The notes beneath the pieces are model-generated. The model did not search any database and was not told where the DNA came from. It was given only the letters and a program-made list of their open reading frames with translations. From contig JAUSES010000029.1 of NCBI GenBank assembly GCA_030649835.1, forward strand, positions 4,130-68,129: a DNA stretch of 64,000 bases, given 5' to 3'. A program made the position numbers and the translations under genes. Origin of the DNA: a bacterium. GTDB taxonomy: Bacteria > Patescibacteriota > Minisyncoccia > Phycocordibacterales > UBA1550. How positions within the stretch are numbered: the stretch's first letter is position 1; each line of letters opens with the position of its first letter. Positions 15,542-55,254 of the stretch are shown piece after piece.

Positions 15542-16255
15542 CTATTTCACAAGTGCCAAGGTGAGTGCGACGATTGCTGCTGTTTCGGCGCGGAGGATTT
15601 GGGGGCCGGTGGTAACAATGGGGATTTTGTGTGAGTGTAAAAACGCTATTTCCTCATCTGTGAAACCTCCTTCGGGGCCGATGAACAGCGAAACGGGTGA
15701 GACTGTGTGCTTCGTGAAATACTCTCGCGCGGATGTTTCTCCACGTGGGTCAAACACGATAAAGTTTTTGTGGGGGATATCTTCCGTTTTTATAATTTCT
15801 AAAATCTCTGGCACCGTTGTGCGCCCAGACTGTTCTGATGCTTCACGCACTATCTTTTGCGCGCGTTCATAGTTCACTCCCTTCTTTTCACTTCGGTCTG
15901 CTTGCACGGGCACAATGCGCGAGGCACCAAGCTCGGTTGCTTTTTCCAACACCATTTCAAAATTATCCTTTTTAATAAGTGCTAGATACAAAGTAACTTC
16001 ACGAAGTGATGAAGGAATGTGTTTCTTTTCCAAAACTTTAAGTGTTGCGAGACTTTTAGACAGTGAAACAAATTCACACAAGGCCTCATCCCCTTTCCCA
16101 TCAAAAAGAACAGCCTTGTCGCACGCCTCCATGCGAAGCACATTCCGCCATTGATTAAGGAGACCCTTGTCCACTAGATTAAACTCAGCGCCCTCAGGCG
16201 GAAGCTCTTTCTTCGGAAAATCCTTATCGTCCACAAAAAATCTATGTAGTTTCAT
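15542..16255 (-). CDS. rsmE: 16S rRNA m3U1498 methyltransferase RsmE
   Basis: EKATELG, EASEQSGR, IGPEGGF, ILRAETA motifs. Confidence 0.96.
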   Translation of the reverse strand: MKLHRFFVDDKDFPKKELPPEGAEFNLVDKGLLNQWRNVLRMEACDKAVLFDGKGDEALCEFVSLSKSLATLKVLEKKHIPSSLREVTLYLALIKKDNFEMVLEKATELGASRIVPVQADRSEKKGVNYERAQKIVREASEQSGRTTVPEILEIIKTEDIPHKNFIVFDPRGETSAREYFTKHTVSPVSLFIGPEGGFTDEEIAFLHSHKIPIVTTGPQILRAETAAIVALTLALVK

Positions 16256-16381
16256 CCCGTTAGAAGTAGGAAATTATTAAAAATTTCCGTAGTTAACTAA
16301 TAAATTGTCAGCCTAAATACATTTATCATAAATTCCCCCTAAACGCCACCCCTGAACCATATGACTTCTAACGGGATTCAT
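16253..16381 (-). mobile_element. Start-codon-associated miniature element, copy 1 (CCCGTTAGA...TCTAACGGG)
   Basis: ATGAATCCCGTTAGA...TAACTACGGAAA..TTTCCTACTTCTAACGGG abuts the rsmE ATG. Confidence 0.8.
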
Positions 16382-16391
16382 GTTGTTAAAA

Positions 16392-26362: not shown

Positions 26363-26565
26363 TGTGTGGGATAGGGGAACCGGGGTCAAGTTTCTAAGCT
26401 CGTAAACTTGCTAAGAACTTTCTCCCCCGGGAGTCCAAGACACAAATCTGCTGATTCGTCTGCGCCCTTTCGCAAGCTCAAGGTGCCCGCCTCCGCCTTT
26501 CGATTCTCCGTACCCGCTACAAAATGCAACAACGCAGAAACTTTCGTTTCAGCGTTGGCATTTTG
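26363..26565 (-). repeat. tRNA-3'-associated fold-back element (Gly-TCC copy)
   Basis: Inverted copy of the tRNA 3' end near 26499-26520 and direct copy at 26363-26380. Confidence 0.7.
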
Positions 26566-27611: not shown

Positions 27612-29579
27612 TTATGAAATCGTCTTGTTTGCCAGCGAAACATCATTGTGTCCACTTCCGGCCCCAACGATGTTCACAGATTCTCCATTATTTGATACAT
27701 CCTCTTTTGGTATTAGCTCTGTAATGGTTGGTATCAATACGGTAAAAGCTGTTCCCTTGCCTTCAACAGTATCAACCCATATCTGCCCGCCGTGGCGCAC
27801 TACAATACTCTTTACAATAAAGAGTCCTAGTCCTGAACCATCTGTCTGCAAATGAATCACATTTGCAGCACGGAAAAACTTAGAAAATAGTTTTGGAAGG
27901 TCTGTTTTAGGAATACCTACACCCGTATCACTAATTTTTATCTCTATATAATCACCATGTTTACTAACTGAGATGGTGACCCTCCCCCTTGGGAACGTGT
28001 ACTTCATAGCATTATCAACAATGTTCTGGAGCGCTATGAGAAGTTTTTCTGGATCAAAAACAAAGTCAGGAATTGTGCCAGCATGATTTTCAAGCCGTAC
28101 CTCAATATTTCGTTCTTTTGAAGGAAGGACGGTGCTTTCCATAAGCATACTAAGAAGTCTCATAAAGTCATTTTTCCCAAAATCATACCCAAACTTACTA
28201 TTCTCTATACGTGAAACATTAAGTAAGTCATTAACGAGCTGGATCATTTTCTCGTTCGTTTCATACCCACGCCTTAACATACCTTTTTGGGTCTCAGAGA
28301 CTTCACCAAGATCTCCATCAAGTAACAGCTTAAGTACCCATTTCACTCCCGAAAGCGGTGTGCGTAGCTGATGTGCAGCCACAGAGATAAAATCTGATTT
28401 CAGTTTATCAAATTCTCTTAGGCTACCTACCATGGAGTTAAAAACATCTCCGAATTGCCCAATCTCATCGTTAGATGTATGCTCTACAGTTTGATTAAAA
28501 TCACCCCCCGCTATTTTTTTAGCAACCAAAGAGTATTTACGTATAGGACCAACGACCTCCGTTTCCAAAATAACAGCGAGTACAACAACGAGAATTACCG
28601 TAAACACTAAACCAATCCACAACATGCGAAGTTTAAGTTGGTTCACCCGAACCTTATAGACATCTTTAAATACCTGAATTTCGGTTAGTCCTGCTATTTG
28701 TTTTTTCCCGTCTGTTCCAACAAAAAATACTGGATTTAATCGCACAATAACATCTACGGTTTTCCCGTTTGGCGTTATGTATGTACGATCAATTTCAAAC
28801 GGGGCCTTTAGTTCGCCACTCATTACACCAAGACGAGCTTTTTTATACTCAGGAGGATCGTCCTTAGTTTCGTTTGGGTTGTTTTGAGTACTTGCTATAA
28901 TATTTAATTTTTCATCAAAAATGATAAAGTTATTAAAAAAATAGAAGTCTTTTACGCTATTTACAATTCGCTGAAGTACGTCAACACTAATTTTTCTAGT
29001 AACAATAAGTGAGCGCATATTTTGGTCAACAAATCTCGTAACAACCTGAAGAACCTTTTTCGCTTCTTCAATATCTGACAAATTTTTTGAGCGCGACGAG
29101 ACAGAAATATCAATAACATTTACCATTTCTGATGAAGTATCGTCGCCTTTAAAAAACACAGGAACATGTCTCTCAAATTCGTAAAAAGTCCCCCTGTCTT
29201 TTTCTGCACTTATTCCCACTCTTTCAACTTCTATCTTTTTCAAGATTTCCCTGTCCTCAAAACTAATCTCCTTTCCTATCAGCTCGTGGTCTTTTGCAGC
29301 AACATAGTATCCGCGCGCATCATTAACATTAATATATTTCAGCTCAGAGCCTGCTCCAATTTTATCTATTGTTGTTTGTAGAGTATCTTGCTGTATATAA
29401 TTTTGAATAAAGGTACGTTCTATCTGATCCCCCAAAATATTTATCACCCCTTGTGAGTCTTCTAAAACTTGCTGTCGTAGGTTTACCGAAACCATATCTA
29501 CGATAACCCAAAAAACTATCGCGAGAATAAACGTAGTTACCGTAACCAAAACAAGATTTACTTTTGTGCCAAGCTTCAT
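27612..29579 (-). CDS. HAMP-domain sensor histidine kinase
   Basis: 2 TM, DEIGQF, AHQLRTPL, NAMKY, DTGVGI, GSGLGL. Confidence 0.93.
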   Translation of the reverse strand: MKLGTKVNLVLVTVTTFILAIVFWVIVDMVSVNLRQQVLEDSQGVINILGDQIERTFIQNYIQQDTLQTTIDKIGAGSELKYINVNDARGYYVAAKDHELIGKEISFEDREILKKIEVERVGISAEKDRGTFYEFERHVPVFFKGDDTSSEMVNVIDISVSSRSKNLSDIEEAKKVLQVVTRFVDQNMRSLIVTRKISVDVLQRIVNSVKDFYFFNNFIIFDEKLNIIASTQNNPNETKDDPPEYKKARLGVMSGELKAPFEIDRTYITPNGKTVDVIVRLNPVFFVGTDGKKQIAGLTEIQVFKDVYKVRVNQLKLRMLWIGLVFTVILVVVLAVILETEVVGPIRKYSLVAKKIAGGDFNQTVEHTSNDEIGQFGDVFNSMVGSLREFDKLKSDFISVAAHQLRTPLSGVKWVLKLLLDGDLGEVSETQKGMLRRGYETNEKMIQLVNDLLNVSRIENSKFGYDFGKNDFMRLLSMLMESTVLPSKERNIEVRLENHAGTIPDFVFDPEKLLIALQNIVDNAMKYTFPRGRVTISVSKHGDYIEIKISDTGVGIPKTDLPKLFSKFFRAANVIHLQTDGSGLGLFIVKSIVVRHGGQIWVDTVEGKGTAFTVLIPTITELIPKEDVSNNGESVNIVGAGSGHNDVSLANKTIS

Positions 29580-29704
29580 CCCGTTAGAGGTAGGAAACGC
29601 TGTGCGTTTCCGTAGTTATTTAATAAATAGTAATACATCAATGTTTTATTATTATAATCCCGCTCTCTCATTATACAAACCTGATGACCTCTAACGGGAT
29701 TCAT
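29577..29704 (-). mobile_element. Start-codon-associated miniature element, copy 2
   Basis: ATGAATCCCGTTAGAGG...TAACTACGGAAACGCACAGCGTTTCCTACCTCTAACGGG then the kinase ATG. Confidence 0.8.
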
Positions 29705-30889: not shown

Positions 30890-31933
30890 TTAATTAATCT
30901 CAATATCAATATGTCTCACCGCGGGGATTTCTTTTTTAATTCTTTCTTCTATTTTATCAATACGTTTCCCAATAACCCGTGGCACGCGATCAGTATAGTC
31001 CACGACATACTTGAGAAAATCCTGATAATCCCCTCTTATGGTTTCATAATCTTCCTTAAGCATTCCGCCGTTTGAAAGTTCGCGGAAAAGCGCTGTGCCA
31101 TTCACCTCCACTTCACACTTTGCGCGATATTTCCCAAGCTCTACCACAGATGATTTGAAATCATGTACGCGCTCAATCATGGGGTCCGCAACAAGTATTT
31201 CGATAATTCGCTCCTGCACTTCCTCGGGGATAGACTTTTCCACAAGGAAGCGCTTGTTTTTCATAATCAAAACAACCGCAACCCATGCCAAGAGGACACC
31301 GATGATAATGGAACCACCGGCATCCCACATTGGATTACCCGTAATGTATGAAAGCCAAATAGAAACCATTGCGACAGAAACACCAAAGACTGCGACTCCA
31401 TCTTCATACACCACGGCAAGCACTGTCGGATCACCATCCTGAAATGTCTCCGAAAACGTTGCGTCCTCCCCTCTCGCTTTCCACAACTCACGAAAAGCAA
31501 CAGAGAAAGTAATCATCTCCACCACAAAAGAAACTCCTAATATTATAAATATTTCGGGCTTGAAAAAAATTTCCTCTGGATGAAGCAGTGTGCTGATGCC
31601 GTGATAGACAGTAACTCCAGCACCAACAAAAAATACTCCACAGGCGGAAATTAACGCCCAAAAGAAACGCTCGAGCCCATATCCATATGAAGAATCTTCG
31701 TCGGGTGCGCGGCGACTTTTCACAATTCCCACAAGCAAAAGAGTTTGGTTTGCAGTGTCAGCGAGGCTGTGCACTGCCTCAGAAAAAAGTGAACTTGAAC
31801 CAGAAACAGCAAACCCGATAGCCTTCAAAATAGTAATAACAAAATTACCTAGCAATGCAAATATTACAGAAATAAATCCGTGCTCTTGCATGTAAGGACG
31901 AGCACCTCTATTTAGTTTTTCATTAATATTCAT
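30890..31933 (-). CDS. Cation diffusion facilitator (ZnT9-like) transporter
   Basis: SEAVHSLAD, YGYGLERF, VYED motifs; start codon uncertain. Confidence 0.9.
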   Translation of the reverse strand: MNINEKLNRGARPYMQEHGFISVIFALLGNFVITILKAIGFAVSGSSSLFSEAVHSLADTANQTLLLVGIVKSRRAPDEDSSYGYGLERFFWALISACGVFFVGAGVTVYHGISTLLHPEEIFFKPEIFIILGVSFVVEMITFSVAFRELWKARGEDATFSETFQDGDPTVLAVVYEDGVAVFGVSVAMVSIWLSYITGNPMWDAGGSIIIGVLLAWVAVVLIMKNKRFLVEKSIPEEVQERIIEILVADPMIERVHDFKSSVVELGKYRAKCEVEVNGTALFRELSNGGMLKEDYETIRGDYQDFLKYVVDYTDRVPRVIGKRIDKIEERIKKEIPAVRHIDIEIN

Positions 31934-31976
31934 AGTTTTTACCAAAATCTGGTAAAACATCAATACAAAATTCTAG

Positions 31977-32178
31977 TCGGGGTGCCGTGCCCAAGGCATG
32001 AATCAGCTGATTCAGAATCGAACTCGGCCTAATCTAAATTTCTTATGGAAATTTCCGCGGAAGTGTTTGGACACTTCCGGTTAAAGCTTTAGTCGGGGTG
32101 CCGAGGAATCCCCGCCTGCCATCGCCTGACTGATCCTTACGAAGCGATTGGCAGTGGCGGGCAGGGAACTCGGCCTAT
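31977..32178 (-). pseudogene. Two displaced 3' halves of tRNA-Pro, each carrying a secondary insertion
   Basis: AGGCCGAGTTCGATTCTCGGCACCCCGA-like segments at 31977-32031 and 32093-32178. Confidence 0.85.
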
Positions 32179-32314
32179 ATTCTAGTGAGTGAGCGAAAAG
32201 TAAATACCAATTTACTTTTCCGAGCGAACGACGAATATATTGTACCCAGTTATATCTAAATTTCTAAAGGAAATTTCCGCGAAAGCATCTATATGCTTTC
32301 GGTTAAAGAATGTG

Positions 32315-32385
32315 TCGGGGTGCCGAGAATCGAACTCGGCCTATCTGCTCCCAAAGCAGACGTACTACCGATATACTACACCCCG
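32315..32385 (-). tRNA. tRNA-Pro(TGG), intact inner copy
   Basis: CGGGGTGTAGTATATCGGTAGTACG-TCTGC TT TGG GA GCAGA-TAGGCCGAGTTCGATTCTCGGCACCCCGA. Confidence 0.95.
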
Positions 32386-32399
32386 ACACATTCTTCAAC

Positions 32400-32562
32400 C
32401 CCACGCAGACGTACTACCGATATACTACACCCCGACTAAAGCTTCAACCCCAAAGCAGACGTACTACCGATATATAACTGCATACAATATATCCTGCGTT
32501 CGCTCGAAAATACAAACTCCATGTTTGTATTTTACTCACTCACTTGGATATACTACACCCCG
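32400..32562 (-). pseudogene. Two displaced 5' halves of tRNA-Pro
   Basis: CGGGGTGTAGTATATCGGTAGTACGTCTGC at 32400-32434, and interrupted at 32449-32562. Confidence 0.85.
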
Positions 32563-32647
32563 TTACACGTGAAACGTAGGAGAATATTAGCACACAAGAG
32601 GCAAATTACGAAATTTGAACACTTGGAACCAGAACATGGGGTAGGTT

Positions 32648-33070
32648 TTACAAAACAAAATTTTCCAAAAACTTTACTTTCGCTGTGCGATTTTTGACAT
32701 CTATCTGCACAGTTATCGCATCAAATACCCACTCAATCTGGTCTTCTGGTCGTCTTTCATACAAATAAACCTGTGTCGTTCGCCTTAAACGCTTTAATTT
32801 ATAAGGGTGCAGATTGTCTTCTGCCCTATATTTATCCGTCCTACTGGAAATACATAGGTCCGACCTATGTGAAGTAGGTATGTTTTCACGTGTAACGCTT
32901 TTTACCTCAATAAAATGCAAAATTTTGCCTTTTTTAGCAATAATATCTATTTCCCCGCATTTTCTGAGAAAATTCTGCTCAATTATTGAAAAACCCTTAT
33001 TTTCTAAGTATTTTTGAGCAATATCCTCTCCTAAACGCCCAATTTTCTGCTTTTCCGTCTTTTCAGCCAT
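32648..33070 (-). CDS. YraN/UPF0102 family endonuclease-like protein
   Basis: GRLGEDIA..YL...G, GEIDII, FIEVKS. Confidence 0.9.
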   Translation of the reverse strand: MAEKTEKQKIGRLGEDIAQKYLENKGFSIIEQNFLRKCGEIDIIAKKGKILHFIEVKSVTRENIPTSHRSDLCISSRTDKYRAEDNLHPYKLKRLRRTTQVYLYERRPEDQIEWVFDAITVQIDVKNRTAKVKFLENFVL

Positions 33071-33363: not shown

Positions 33364-33501
33364 GTTTTGGGTCATTTTCCCCATATTTTCCGCCTCAAAC
33401 CGTTGACATGGTGTGTCGGCGTGGTGATTTTGAGAGCAAATGTCCTTTAAAAAATGTGCGAATTTGTATTAAATTGTACTCCTGTGTTATACTTTATACG
33501 T

Positions 33502-34191
33502 ATGCGTACAGACAAAGAGAAGGCGACACAGCTTCGTAGGTTTGGTAAAAGCTATCAGGAAATCGCAGGCGAGCTAGGAATCCCTAAAAGCACTTTATCA
33601 GCGTGGTTTGGCGCCTCTTTGTGGTCACAGAAAATAAAAGATGATCTGAATGTTGTTACACATAGAAAGCACACGATCCGCATAGAAGAGCTCAACAAGG
33701 TGCGTGGGGAACATCTTAGGAATCTTTATATTCAAGCACGACATGAGGCACTTGAGGATTTTGAAATTCTAAAATACCATCCAGCTTTTATTTCAGGTGT
33801 TATGCTCTATTGGGGCGAAGGGGACAAGGCTTCCCTTCACCGCGTATCGCTAACCAACACCGATCCAGCAATGATAAGAATATTCATGGGGTTCCTTAAA
33901 GATGTGTGTGGAGTTGAGGAAAAGAGAATTAAGGCCTGGCTCCTTTTATATCCAGATCTTCAAGAATCTGAGTGCAAAAAATATTGGAAAGAGGAGGCAC
34001 ATTTACAAAATGTAATCTTCAATAAAAGCATGGTAATAGACGGGAGGCATAAAACAAAACGTCTAGGGCATGGTGTTTGCACTGTTGGTGTTTCTAGTAG
34101 ATATTTTAAAGAAAAAATGTTATTGTGGATTTCGTTGTTCCCTGATATGCTTGCAAACAGGGAACTATATGGGAAAGATGCGGATATATGA
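33502..34191 (+). CDS. HTH plus LAGLIDADG-like domain protein, tRNA-adjacent
   Basis: GKSYQEIAGELGIPKSTLSAW HTH; GVMLYWGEGDK..VSLTNTDP LAGLIDADG-like helix. Confidence 0.7.
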   Translation: MRTDKEKATQLRRFGKSYQEIAGELGIPKSTLSAWFGASLWSQKIKDDLNVVTHRKHTIRIEELNKVRGEHLRNLYIQARHEALEDFEILKYHPAFISGVMLYWGEGDKASLHRVSLTNTDPAMIRIFMGFLKDVCGVEEKRIKAWLLLYPDLQESECKKYWKEEAHLQNVIFNKSMVIDGRHKTKRLGHGVCTVGVSSRYFKEKMLLWISLFPDMLANRELYGKDADI

Positions 34192-34327: not shown

Positions 34328-34525
34328 CAATTAAAATTGCCCCGAAAGGGGCTTTTTAATTGTGCGGATAGAGCAAGCCTCCTGCTTGGCTTGCGTGGAG
34401 AATCGAAAGCCGGAATATATTTTTGTAATCAAAAATAATGAGGTGGGGTCGAGGGTACTTAGATTTTTGTGAGTAATGCGATACAAAAAGCTTAGTAACC
34501 CGTGACCGAAAGCCCTATCCGCACA
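34328..34525 (+). repeat. tRNA-3'-associated fold-back element (Gly-GCC copy)
   Basis: Hairpin, inverted TGTGCGGATAG..GGAGAATCGAA, core, then direct copy CCCTATCCGCAC at about 34513. Confidence 0.75.
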
Positions 34526-38913: not shown

Positions 38914-39043
38914 ATGAATCCCGTTAGAGGTCGCTCAGTTTATTAAACAGCACCTGCGGGACTTTATGATAAAAGGTTAGATTTATTTACTATGCGATAA
39001 TTAACTACGGAAATGCATGGCATTTCCTACCTCTAACGGGATG
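38914..39043 (+). mobile_element. Start-codon-associated miniature element, copy 3
   Basis: ATGAATCCCGTTAGAGG...TAACTACGGAAATGCATGGCATTTCCTACCTCTAACGGG then ATG 39041. Confidence 0.8.
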
Positions 39044-55076: not shown

Positions 55077-55254
55077 ATGAATCCCGTTAGAGATGAAAGC
55101 GTTATGTTTTTGTCACCAATAGGATATACTGAAGCTATTACTATTAACAGATTGATATAATAAGGATACGGAAACTTGTCCCGTTAGAAGCCGCGAGAGA
55201 ATCGCAACGCTGAGTTGCTTCTAACGGGATAAATTTCCTATCTCTAACGGGATG
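55077..55254 (+). mobile_element. Start-codon-associated miniature element, copy 4, with a nested ~50-bp related copy
   Basis: ATGAATCCCGTTAGAG...TACGGAAA[CCCGTTAGAAG...CTTCTAACGGG]..TTTCCTATCTCTAACGGG then ATG 55252. Confidence 0.8.

Follow-up and report, generated by a model that had tools for sequence, protein, structure and literature searches.

Nested tRNA-Pro genes in a Patescibacteria genome: probable recursive insertion of a small non-coding cassette that carries its own tRNA

Elements of the REP and MITE types are short, lack ORFs, are rich in hairpins, are moved in trans and nest in each other, and the group I introns of bacterial tRNA genes are inserted in the anticodon region with the two gene halves in order. 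By analogy, the closest known system in effect to the locus described here appears to be the tRNA-dependent lysogeny of actinobacteriophages, in which a host tRNA gene is split and a same-isotype tRNA is carried (PMC10865867). That system, as described there, involves a whole prophage, a tyrosine integrase and a core of 8-11 bases (PMC10865867), whereas our locus contains units of about 150 bases that are gene-less, have no repeated core, are accompanied by loss of target bases and are nested repeatedly. Phage T4 SegB also attacks tRNA genes sequence-specifically, at a motif in the T-arm, and spreads a tRNA-bearing region, but what it propagates through long-tract conversion is its own gene, and its cut lies close to the 3' end of the tRNA (PMC2330249), in contrast to a gene-less cassette with a base-exact junction fixed to a hairpin. 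The 37/38 introns of archaeal and eukaryal tRNA genes resemble our locus in being inserted in the anticodon region with the halves kept in order, and the available part of that paper on split and permuted tRNA genes contained no description of a nested cassette layout (PMC3978253). Unlike tRNA introns, however, the insert described here is flanked by incomplete and decaying exons, lacks a catalytic core and contains a working tRNA. In the IS91 family, insertion without target duplication occurs at short targets (GTTC, CTTG, GTCC, rarely GTAC or GTGC), and one precise end with two subterminal palindromes is combined with a leaky end that carries adjacent DNA (PMC13181058). The literature searched (main texts without supplements, with few subscription papers) contained no description of nested tRNA cassettes.

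We analysed a window of 64,000 nucleotides (the whole stretch under study) from a 1.06-Mb genome, in which a tRNA-Pro locus is flanked by a UPF0102 gene and a cation-efflux gene. A first-pass annotation had described the order 5', 5', full, 3', 3' on the minus strand, and all these parts were present where it had placed them. Specifically, the minus strand from 32562 to 31977 contains a 5' half, an arm, a 5' half, an arm, a single intact tRNA-Pro(TGG), an arm, two hairpins, a 3' half, an arm, two hairpins and a 3' half (Table 1). The main parts of the element listing in that annotation could be retained, but four small palindromic inserts within the dead halves were missing from it. All four belong to dispersed families, for which motif matches numbered 13, 12 and 25 in the genome, compared with 0, 2 and 0 in a reversed-genome control. 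The 621-base region folds with z = -17 relative to 20 shuffles.

Table 1. Components of the nested tRNA-Pro locus, listed along the minus strand (positions are those of the window)
Feature	Positions	Strand	Remarks
Outer (oldest) dead tRNA-Pro 5' half, tRNA positions 1-31, D loop interrupted	32455..32562	-	
Secondary palindromic insert of about 78 bases, from a dispersed family, in the outer 5' half (D loop)	32471..32548	-	13 motif matches in genome
Cassette 1 left end: TTTGG (of ambiguous source, from host 32-36 or from the cassette) and 15-base arm	32435..32454	-	
Middle dead tRNA-Pro 5' half, tRNA positions 1-31; tRNA brought by cassette 1	32405..32434	-	
Cassette 2 left end: GTGG and 15-base arm	32386..32404	-	
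Intact tRNA-Pro(TGG) (ARAGORN and Rfam); the sole TGG proline tRNA found by ARAGORN in the assembly	32314..32385	-	
Cassette 2 right arm, from the discriminator base on; pairs with 32386-32400	32301..32315	-	
Cassette 2 right-end module: hairpins of 8 bp and 7 bp joined by a 4-base linker, the second reaching the junction	32258..32300	-	
Middle dead tRNA-Pro 3' half, from tRNA position 41, holding two secondary inserts	32093..32257	-	
Secondary insert of the D-loop insert family, reverse orientation, at about tRNA position 44	32177..32253	-	
CCTGCC-family palindrome of 55 bases, a secondary insert at 56/57 (T loop) of the middle 3' half	32111..32165	-	
Cassette 1 right arm; pairs with 32435-32449	32079..32093	-	
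Cassette 1 right-end module, two hairpins	32036..32078	-	
Outer dead tRNA-Pro 3' half, from tRNA position 41, one extra T, broken after the T loop	31977..32035	-	
Secondary insert of about 27 bases from the GAATCAG family, outer 3' half, T stem	31988..32014	-	25 motif matches in genome

Each layer is an ORF-less cassette of about 150 bases. Its left end reads GTGG or TTTGG and is followed by an arm of 15 bp (at least 40 bp in some loci), the tRNA, the second arm and a two-hairpin right end, in which a 4-base linker separates a first hairpin of 8 bp from a second of 7 bp; the non-tRNA portion amounts to about 80 bases. The right-end motif occurs exactly twice in the genome, both times at this locus. 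The arms were said in the first-pass annotation to be complementary, to extend the acceptor stem and to differ by layer, and this holds: both arm pairs are 21/22 complementary with the acceptor strand included, and the fit is 95% with the nested partner versus 77% with the arm of the other layer. Pairing at 13 or more of the 15 arm positions was found in 26 of 27 non-redundant module-bearing Pro loci, and arms as full as this also in 14 of 43 Pro loci without the motif, many of them remnants. The covariation figures for arms and hairpins, which are inflated by kinship, were 93.7% pairing for 21 distinct arm pairs versus 68.3% with shuffled partners (sd 2.2, maximum 78.7), and 97.4% of cells paired in the module hairpins of 31 sequences, with both-side changes in 10 of 15 pairs. 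For the hairpins, none of 500 shuffles scored as high and slid controls gave 27-58%. Pairing of the linker (GYGG) with target positions 27-31 as a guide was seen in the fold of locus L006 and was rejected, as there was no covariation with other alleles.

The covarying hairpins might be taken to suggest a functional RNA, in which the outer gene would be transcribed with an intron-like insert and processed into one or two products, and in the fold of the single-layer form (z = -8.7) an outer cloverleaf does surround the inner tRNA. The joined halves, however, give no complete anticodon arm, and they collect substitutions, inserts and one-sided deletions (L002, L009, L012, L013, L021). Rfam searches, with gathering thresholds or E up to 5, returned tRNA only and no intron or ribozyme family, and the relatives at L022-L024 manage without layers, so that a functional RNA appears very improbable.

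The nesting is a true one, and the innermost layer is the newest. In L059, three different acceptor stems are paired in nested register; in L050, the middle shell carries the arms and the tRNA allele that are innermost in L008, and inside it lies a further layer with another arm and another allele. The layers hold different tRNA alleles, nested in register, and decay is heavier in the outer halves. The regular spacing at this locus, where the 5' units repeat every 49-50 bases and the 3' units every 222 bases, might instead stem from unequal crossover of sister copies or from two independent tandem duplications, one flanking the tRNA on each side, and one-sided and collapsed forms show that recombination trims such arrays (trimming of layers is seen in L009, L012, L013, L021 and L184). 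Duplication would not explain, however, why arms and acceptor stems differ by layer yet pair in nested register, or why new inner layers bring new arms and alleles. Because of L059 and L050, duplication is refuted as the origin and survives merely as a route of layer loss, in line with the earlier remark that the order is unlike that of a simple tandem duplication; we would give this explanation very little credence. The inner tRNA is the same as the shell allele in most loci, a state that local copying or gene conversion could also yield.

Three Logan contigs of run X1, which may be the source sample, tile positions 31500-33000 with 0 differences at depths of 16.2, 13.6 and 16.6, overlapping by 28 bases at the repeated half. 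None of them alone spans the locus, as would be expected of an assembly artefact at a repeated tRNA, but their depths are equal, the layers have unique sequence, and the layout with 0-3 layers was found in many independent Patescibacteria assemblies, which makes an artefact scarcely credible. The Pro(TGG) locus was inspected in 24 of 28 genus relatives searched, with the module in 12, arms or one half only in 8 and neither in 4. The first-pass annotation had proposed that a small element with a complete tRNA entered the anticodon arm recursively, and this core proposal is supported: a check of relatives for single-layer intermediates and of other loci for the motif did not refute it. Clean single-layer forms (L006, L010, L011), empty sites (L022-L024) and three-layer forms (L059, L184) were all found, and the right-end motif is present at other tRNA loci. 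In metagenome contigs, 22 of 30 motif matches lay behind tRNA-Pro (TGG or CGG) and 8 were without a tRNA. With a covariance model of the module (E < 1e-4), matches were obtained in 12 of the 150 further genomes examined from the order and in 5 of the 150 from the class. Among 32 hits in named genomes, 15 were tRNA-linked, all with Patescibacteria-lineage titles, and the remaining 17 had no tRNA nearby. A looser pattern applied class-wide matched in 59 of 401 genomes and was set aside as mostly chance, as were its 32- and 11-copy matches, which represent a CRISPR-like repeat array resembling the last hairpin and were judged coincidental from one of the two genomes. One such CRISPR-like array (L129:1490-3020) has 36-base repeats, which resemble the last hairpin of the module by what we judged to be chance, and 25-29-base spacers.

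The right junction lies at tRNA position 40/41 and the left junction somewhere within 31-37; a break right after G37 at the canonical intron position, as first annotated, is not supported. Position 41 directly follows the last hairpin for six different host 41-43 triplets (AGA, ATA, AAG, GTG, GAG and AGG). In relatives without secondary inserts the junction is clean; AGAT, which had been assigned to the element, is therefore part of the tRNA. Host-type bases on the left side continue up to position 31 and are followed by GTGG or TTTGG; GTGG, previously read as degeneration of the middle half at its break, is not decay but a cassette end shared by many genomes. Pro sites have lost 4-9 target bases without duplication, a loss that is not visible at T-loop sites. 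Since the 3' half restarts at position 41, 4-9 bases are lost and the halves decay, there is no 37/38 intron, and the loss of target bases without duplication rules out conservative integration as well. The left-end bases are often donor-derived, because shells of CGG-type tRNAs mostly read TTTGG (6 of 8: L054, L057 twice, L059, L159 and L184) and only in 2 of 8 TTCGG (L119 and L187).

A junction table was compiled from 73 module matches in 73 chosen loci, 67 of which had a tRNA upstream. The right junction was exactly at 40/41 or 56/57 in 43 of the 67 (32/49 Pro and 11/18 T-loop), or in 47 of 67 when four parsing misses of the script are counted, and the 20 inexact ones reflected decay, a one-base shift (2) or a shell allele unlike the inner tRNA. 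All 43 exact junctions had GNNC before and a purine (A or G) after the junction, the target at positions 37-40 being GAGC, GTTC, GTGC, GTAC, GATC or GACC; at either type of site, anticodon arm or T loop, GGGNNC occupies the six bases upstream. In this genome, GGGNNC/R is found in the anticodon arm (35-41) of 2 of 46 tRNAs, both of them Pro, and the bias towards Pro may be explained by Pro tRNAs alone offering the motif there. T-loop matches read GGGTTC in 13 of 17 loci versus 7 of 45 tRNAs of this genome, counted by eye and with non-independent loci, or in 13 of 19 if two further matches with the tRNA out of view, which seem to be non-GGG by their tails, are included; four T-loop loci read GAGTTC or TGGTTC.

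A shrunken tyrosine-integrase element of the lysogeny type, a former prophage or island that brought a spare tRNA when it interrupted the gene and has since lost all else, would agree with published phages that have a short core, leave the host tRNA unrebuilt and carry a same-isotype tRNA (PMC10865867). Such phages keep a common core of 8-11 bases at both junctions, however, whereas in our case there is no repeated core and the loss covers at least positions 37/38-40. The near-constant size and the hairpin covariation over many families are also unlike deletion scars. No integrase-bearing form was found, and viral contigs gave 0 matches with the Pro motif and 1, due to chance, with the T-loop variant. 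An integrase origin is therefore most unlikely.

According to the covariance model, this right-end module is likewise the right end of small inserts located behind tRNAs for Ser, Leu, Met, Tyr, Asp, Glu, Gln and Ile. These T-loop inserts are joined at 56/57 and preceded by a stretch antisense to the T-arm of their own tRNA, and repeated T-loop inserts were seen in L168 and L156. About 15 tRNA genes of the genome studied here (e.g. window 34329-34525 on the plus strand and 26380-26564 on the minus strand) also have T-loop inserts, of 110-280 bases, with an antisense T-arm copy and a duplicated tRNA tail; their cores did not match the module model.

The main rival explanation is homing by double-strand-break repair, in which a free-standing endonuclease would cut the tRNA gene and the dead halves of the incoming DNA would provide homology, with no chemistry at element ends. 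In tRNA genes, the T-arm motif GGTTCRANTCC is the recognition sequence of SegB, which is a GIY-YIG enzyme (PMC2330249). Twelve GIY-YIG genes are present in the genome, as are seven related HTH proteins, each within about 110 bases of a tRNA gene, and homing would account both for the recursion and for donor-type left bases. Homologous repair, however, normally leaves host bases further from the junction than is seen in L035, L045 and L050, in which the right side returns to host-type bases at position 41 and the left side does so within 3-10 bases. Homing also gives no reason why inserts at unrelated tRNAs should terminate in one conserved, covarying module; in addition, no nuclease gene is linked to the cassette and the inner tRNA keeps the cut site. 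We thus consider homing decidedly unlikely.

We consider it probable that each layer represents one insertion of a non-coding mobile cassette moved by an enzyme encoded elsewhere. We infer that this enzyme is sequence-specific and acts in trans, making one exact end while the other is resolved by short homology; our guess would be a single-stranded copy-in reaction that is precise at one end. The foot of the last hairpin would be joined to the purine in GGGNNC/R, a motif that is frequent in T-arms at 51-57 and that Pro tRNAs (NGG anticodon plus G37) have at 35-41 as well, and the junction of the left end would fall 4-9 bases further upstream, inside a short run of shared bases. The anticodon arm would thereby lose some of its sequence and the resident tRNA gene would die. 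The cassette would also pass from cell to cell. At T-loop sites the carried 3' tail should suffice to restore the tRNA, whereas at position 40/41 the cell would live only if the cassette carried a whole tRNA. The recursion may be explained by the cargo tRNA restoring the target site, so that the next cassette could land within the previous one. The arms may clamp the cargo tRNA, probably preventing mispairing with the dead halves.

Within the copy-in reading, an HUH rolling-circle enzyme of the IS91 type is quite possible, RNA-templated target priming is more doubtful and a recombinase or other enzyme somewhat unlikely. Like IS91, the cassette shows no target duplication, a short specific target (GNNC/R in 43 of 43 exact junctions) and one leaky end; unlike IS91, it contains no transposase, 4-9 target bases are lost at Pro sites and the junction follows GNNC, whereas the precise end of IS91 lies 5' of the tetranucleotide and nothing is deleted. 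A precise 3' end with a variable 5' end characterises target-primed retro-insertion, and the junctions observed here are of this kind, as expected for a SINE-like retroelement. By resemblance, the target loss would fit target-primed retro-insertion better, and the hairpin ends would fit an IS91-type reaction better. The cassette differs from REP/MITE elements in having no terminal inverted repeats at its true ends and no target duplication, together with a tRNA-specific target and an essential cargo, and from classical DDE MITEs in that the inverted arms are internal, the two ends are dissimilar and duplication is absent. It is also unlike IS200/IS605 or REP-RAYT (Y1) elements, since the flank varies (six triplets) without a fixed tetranucleotide, and the Y1 genes lie near other repeats. 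A more speculative reading, rather less likely than not, is an undescribed site-specific insertion system of Patescibacteria in which the two-hairpin module would serve as a handle, and tRNA-bearing strands would be copied into GGGNNC/R sites of tRNA genes, which would swap essential tRNA alleles in place between lineages and leave a dated stack of dead predecessors; the template could possibly be the pre-tRNA transcript itself, a bacterial SINE-like route.

No enzyme gene was found inside or next to any cassette read. In addition to the GIY-YIG proteins, the genome encodes 5 Y1 transposases, 1 reverse transcriptase and 2 tyrosine recombinases, none adjacent to a cassette; the five Y1 genes are flanked by repeats other than the module hairpins, and the nearest recombinase is 9 kb off, among housekeeping genes. 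A PF04986 profile search gave no match in the genome, and none in its 14 controls either, and no free circle or empty cassette was present among the contigs examined. With a view to lagging-strand versus transcript-based routes, strand bias was counted: 11 of 16 tRNAs that bear inserts and 14 of 23 that lack them lie on the G-rich strand, as do 35 of 40 module loci, a figure confounded by gene direction. The HTH proteins beside tRNA genes were considered as movers and rejected, since none adjoins the nested type among the loci read and Pfam and Atlas give HTH only. This 245-aa family has 7 copies (window 33454-34191 on the plus strand and six other places), 6 of them directly upstream of a tRNA gene. 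One ORF ends inside the tRNA start, and the ORF in the window ends in a 9-base copy of the 5' end of tRNA-Gly, 66 bases before that gene. Their YWGEG motif is, we presume, reminiscent of LAGLIDADG-like nucleases. By eye, one GIY-YIG ORF (G000:C14 near 16054-16387) lies within the apparent 5' part of a 16S rRNA gene and another (G000:C34 near 33411-33783) ends just before an RNase P RNA-like sequence. The reverse transcriptase (G000:C17:20198-21197) has a template-repeat-like stretch upstream, and we take its locus to resemble a diversity-generating retroelement. On G000:C55, 7 tRNA genes that end in CCA and do not resemble the host set form a tight array, which is possibly phage-derived or misbinned.

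If our preferred reading is correct, a gene-less element would be hard to lose, because it kills an essential single-copy tRNA gene and supplies the replacement, and the cycle could be repeated indefinitely, because the replacement tRNA is its own target. It would also provide a route for horizontal exchange of tRNA genes in place, with the layers recording the order of events. As anticodon cassettes and T-loop inserts are tied to one end module and one short target motif, the question of the mover would become a defined assay with known ends. The chemistry might be of a new kind among non-autonomous elements that target tRNA genes. We would also caution that tRNA fragments in such genomes are not prophage att scars.

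Other element families also nest tRNAs in their own halves, so that carriage of a whole tRNA looks like a solution reached by several hairpin elements. For example, in L111 a tRNA-Pro(CGG) lies inside a palindrome of the CCTGCC family within its own halves; in L121 a tRNA-Ala is nested in its own halves inside a palindrome family with about 20 copies in the genome studied here; and in L203 and L187 one family is nested in another. A decayed second nest of another type, without the module, is present in the same genome at tRNA-Ile(GAT) (G000:C58:89640-89910, minus strand), with the layout 5', 5', full, 3'. In a genus relative, tRNA-Pro(GGG) has a nested layout with arms in which the two-hairpin module is absent (L030). 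A palindromic family, CCCGTTAGA ... TCTAACGGG (22 pairings found), has the same arms as the tRNA-Ala nest of L121 and encloses varied cargo; its copies include G000:C43:8253-8579 and window positions 29579-29697, 38919-39039 and 55082-55227, and one of them encloses a whole GIY-YIG gene.
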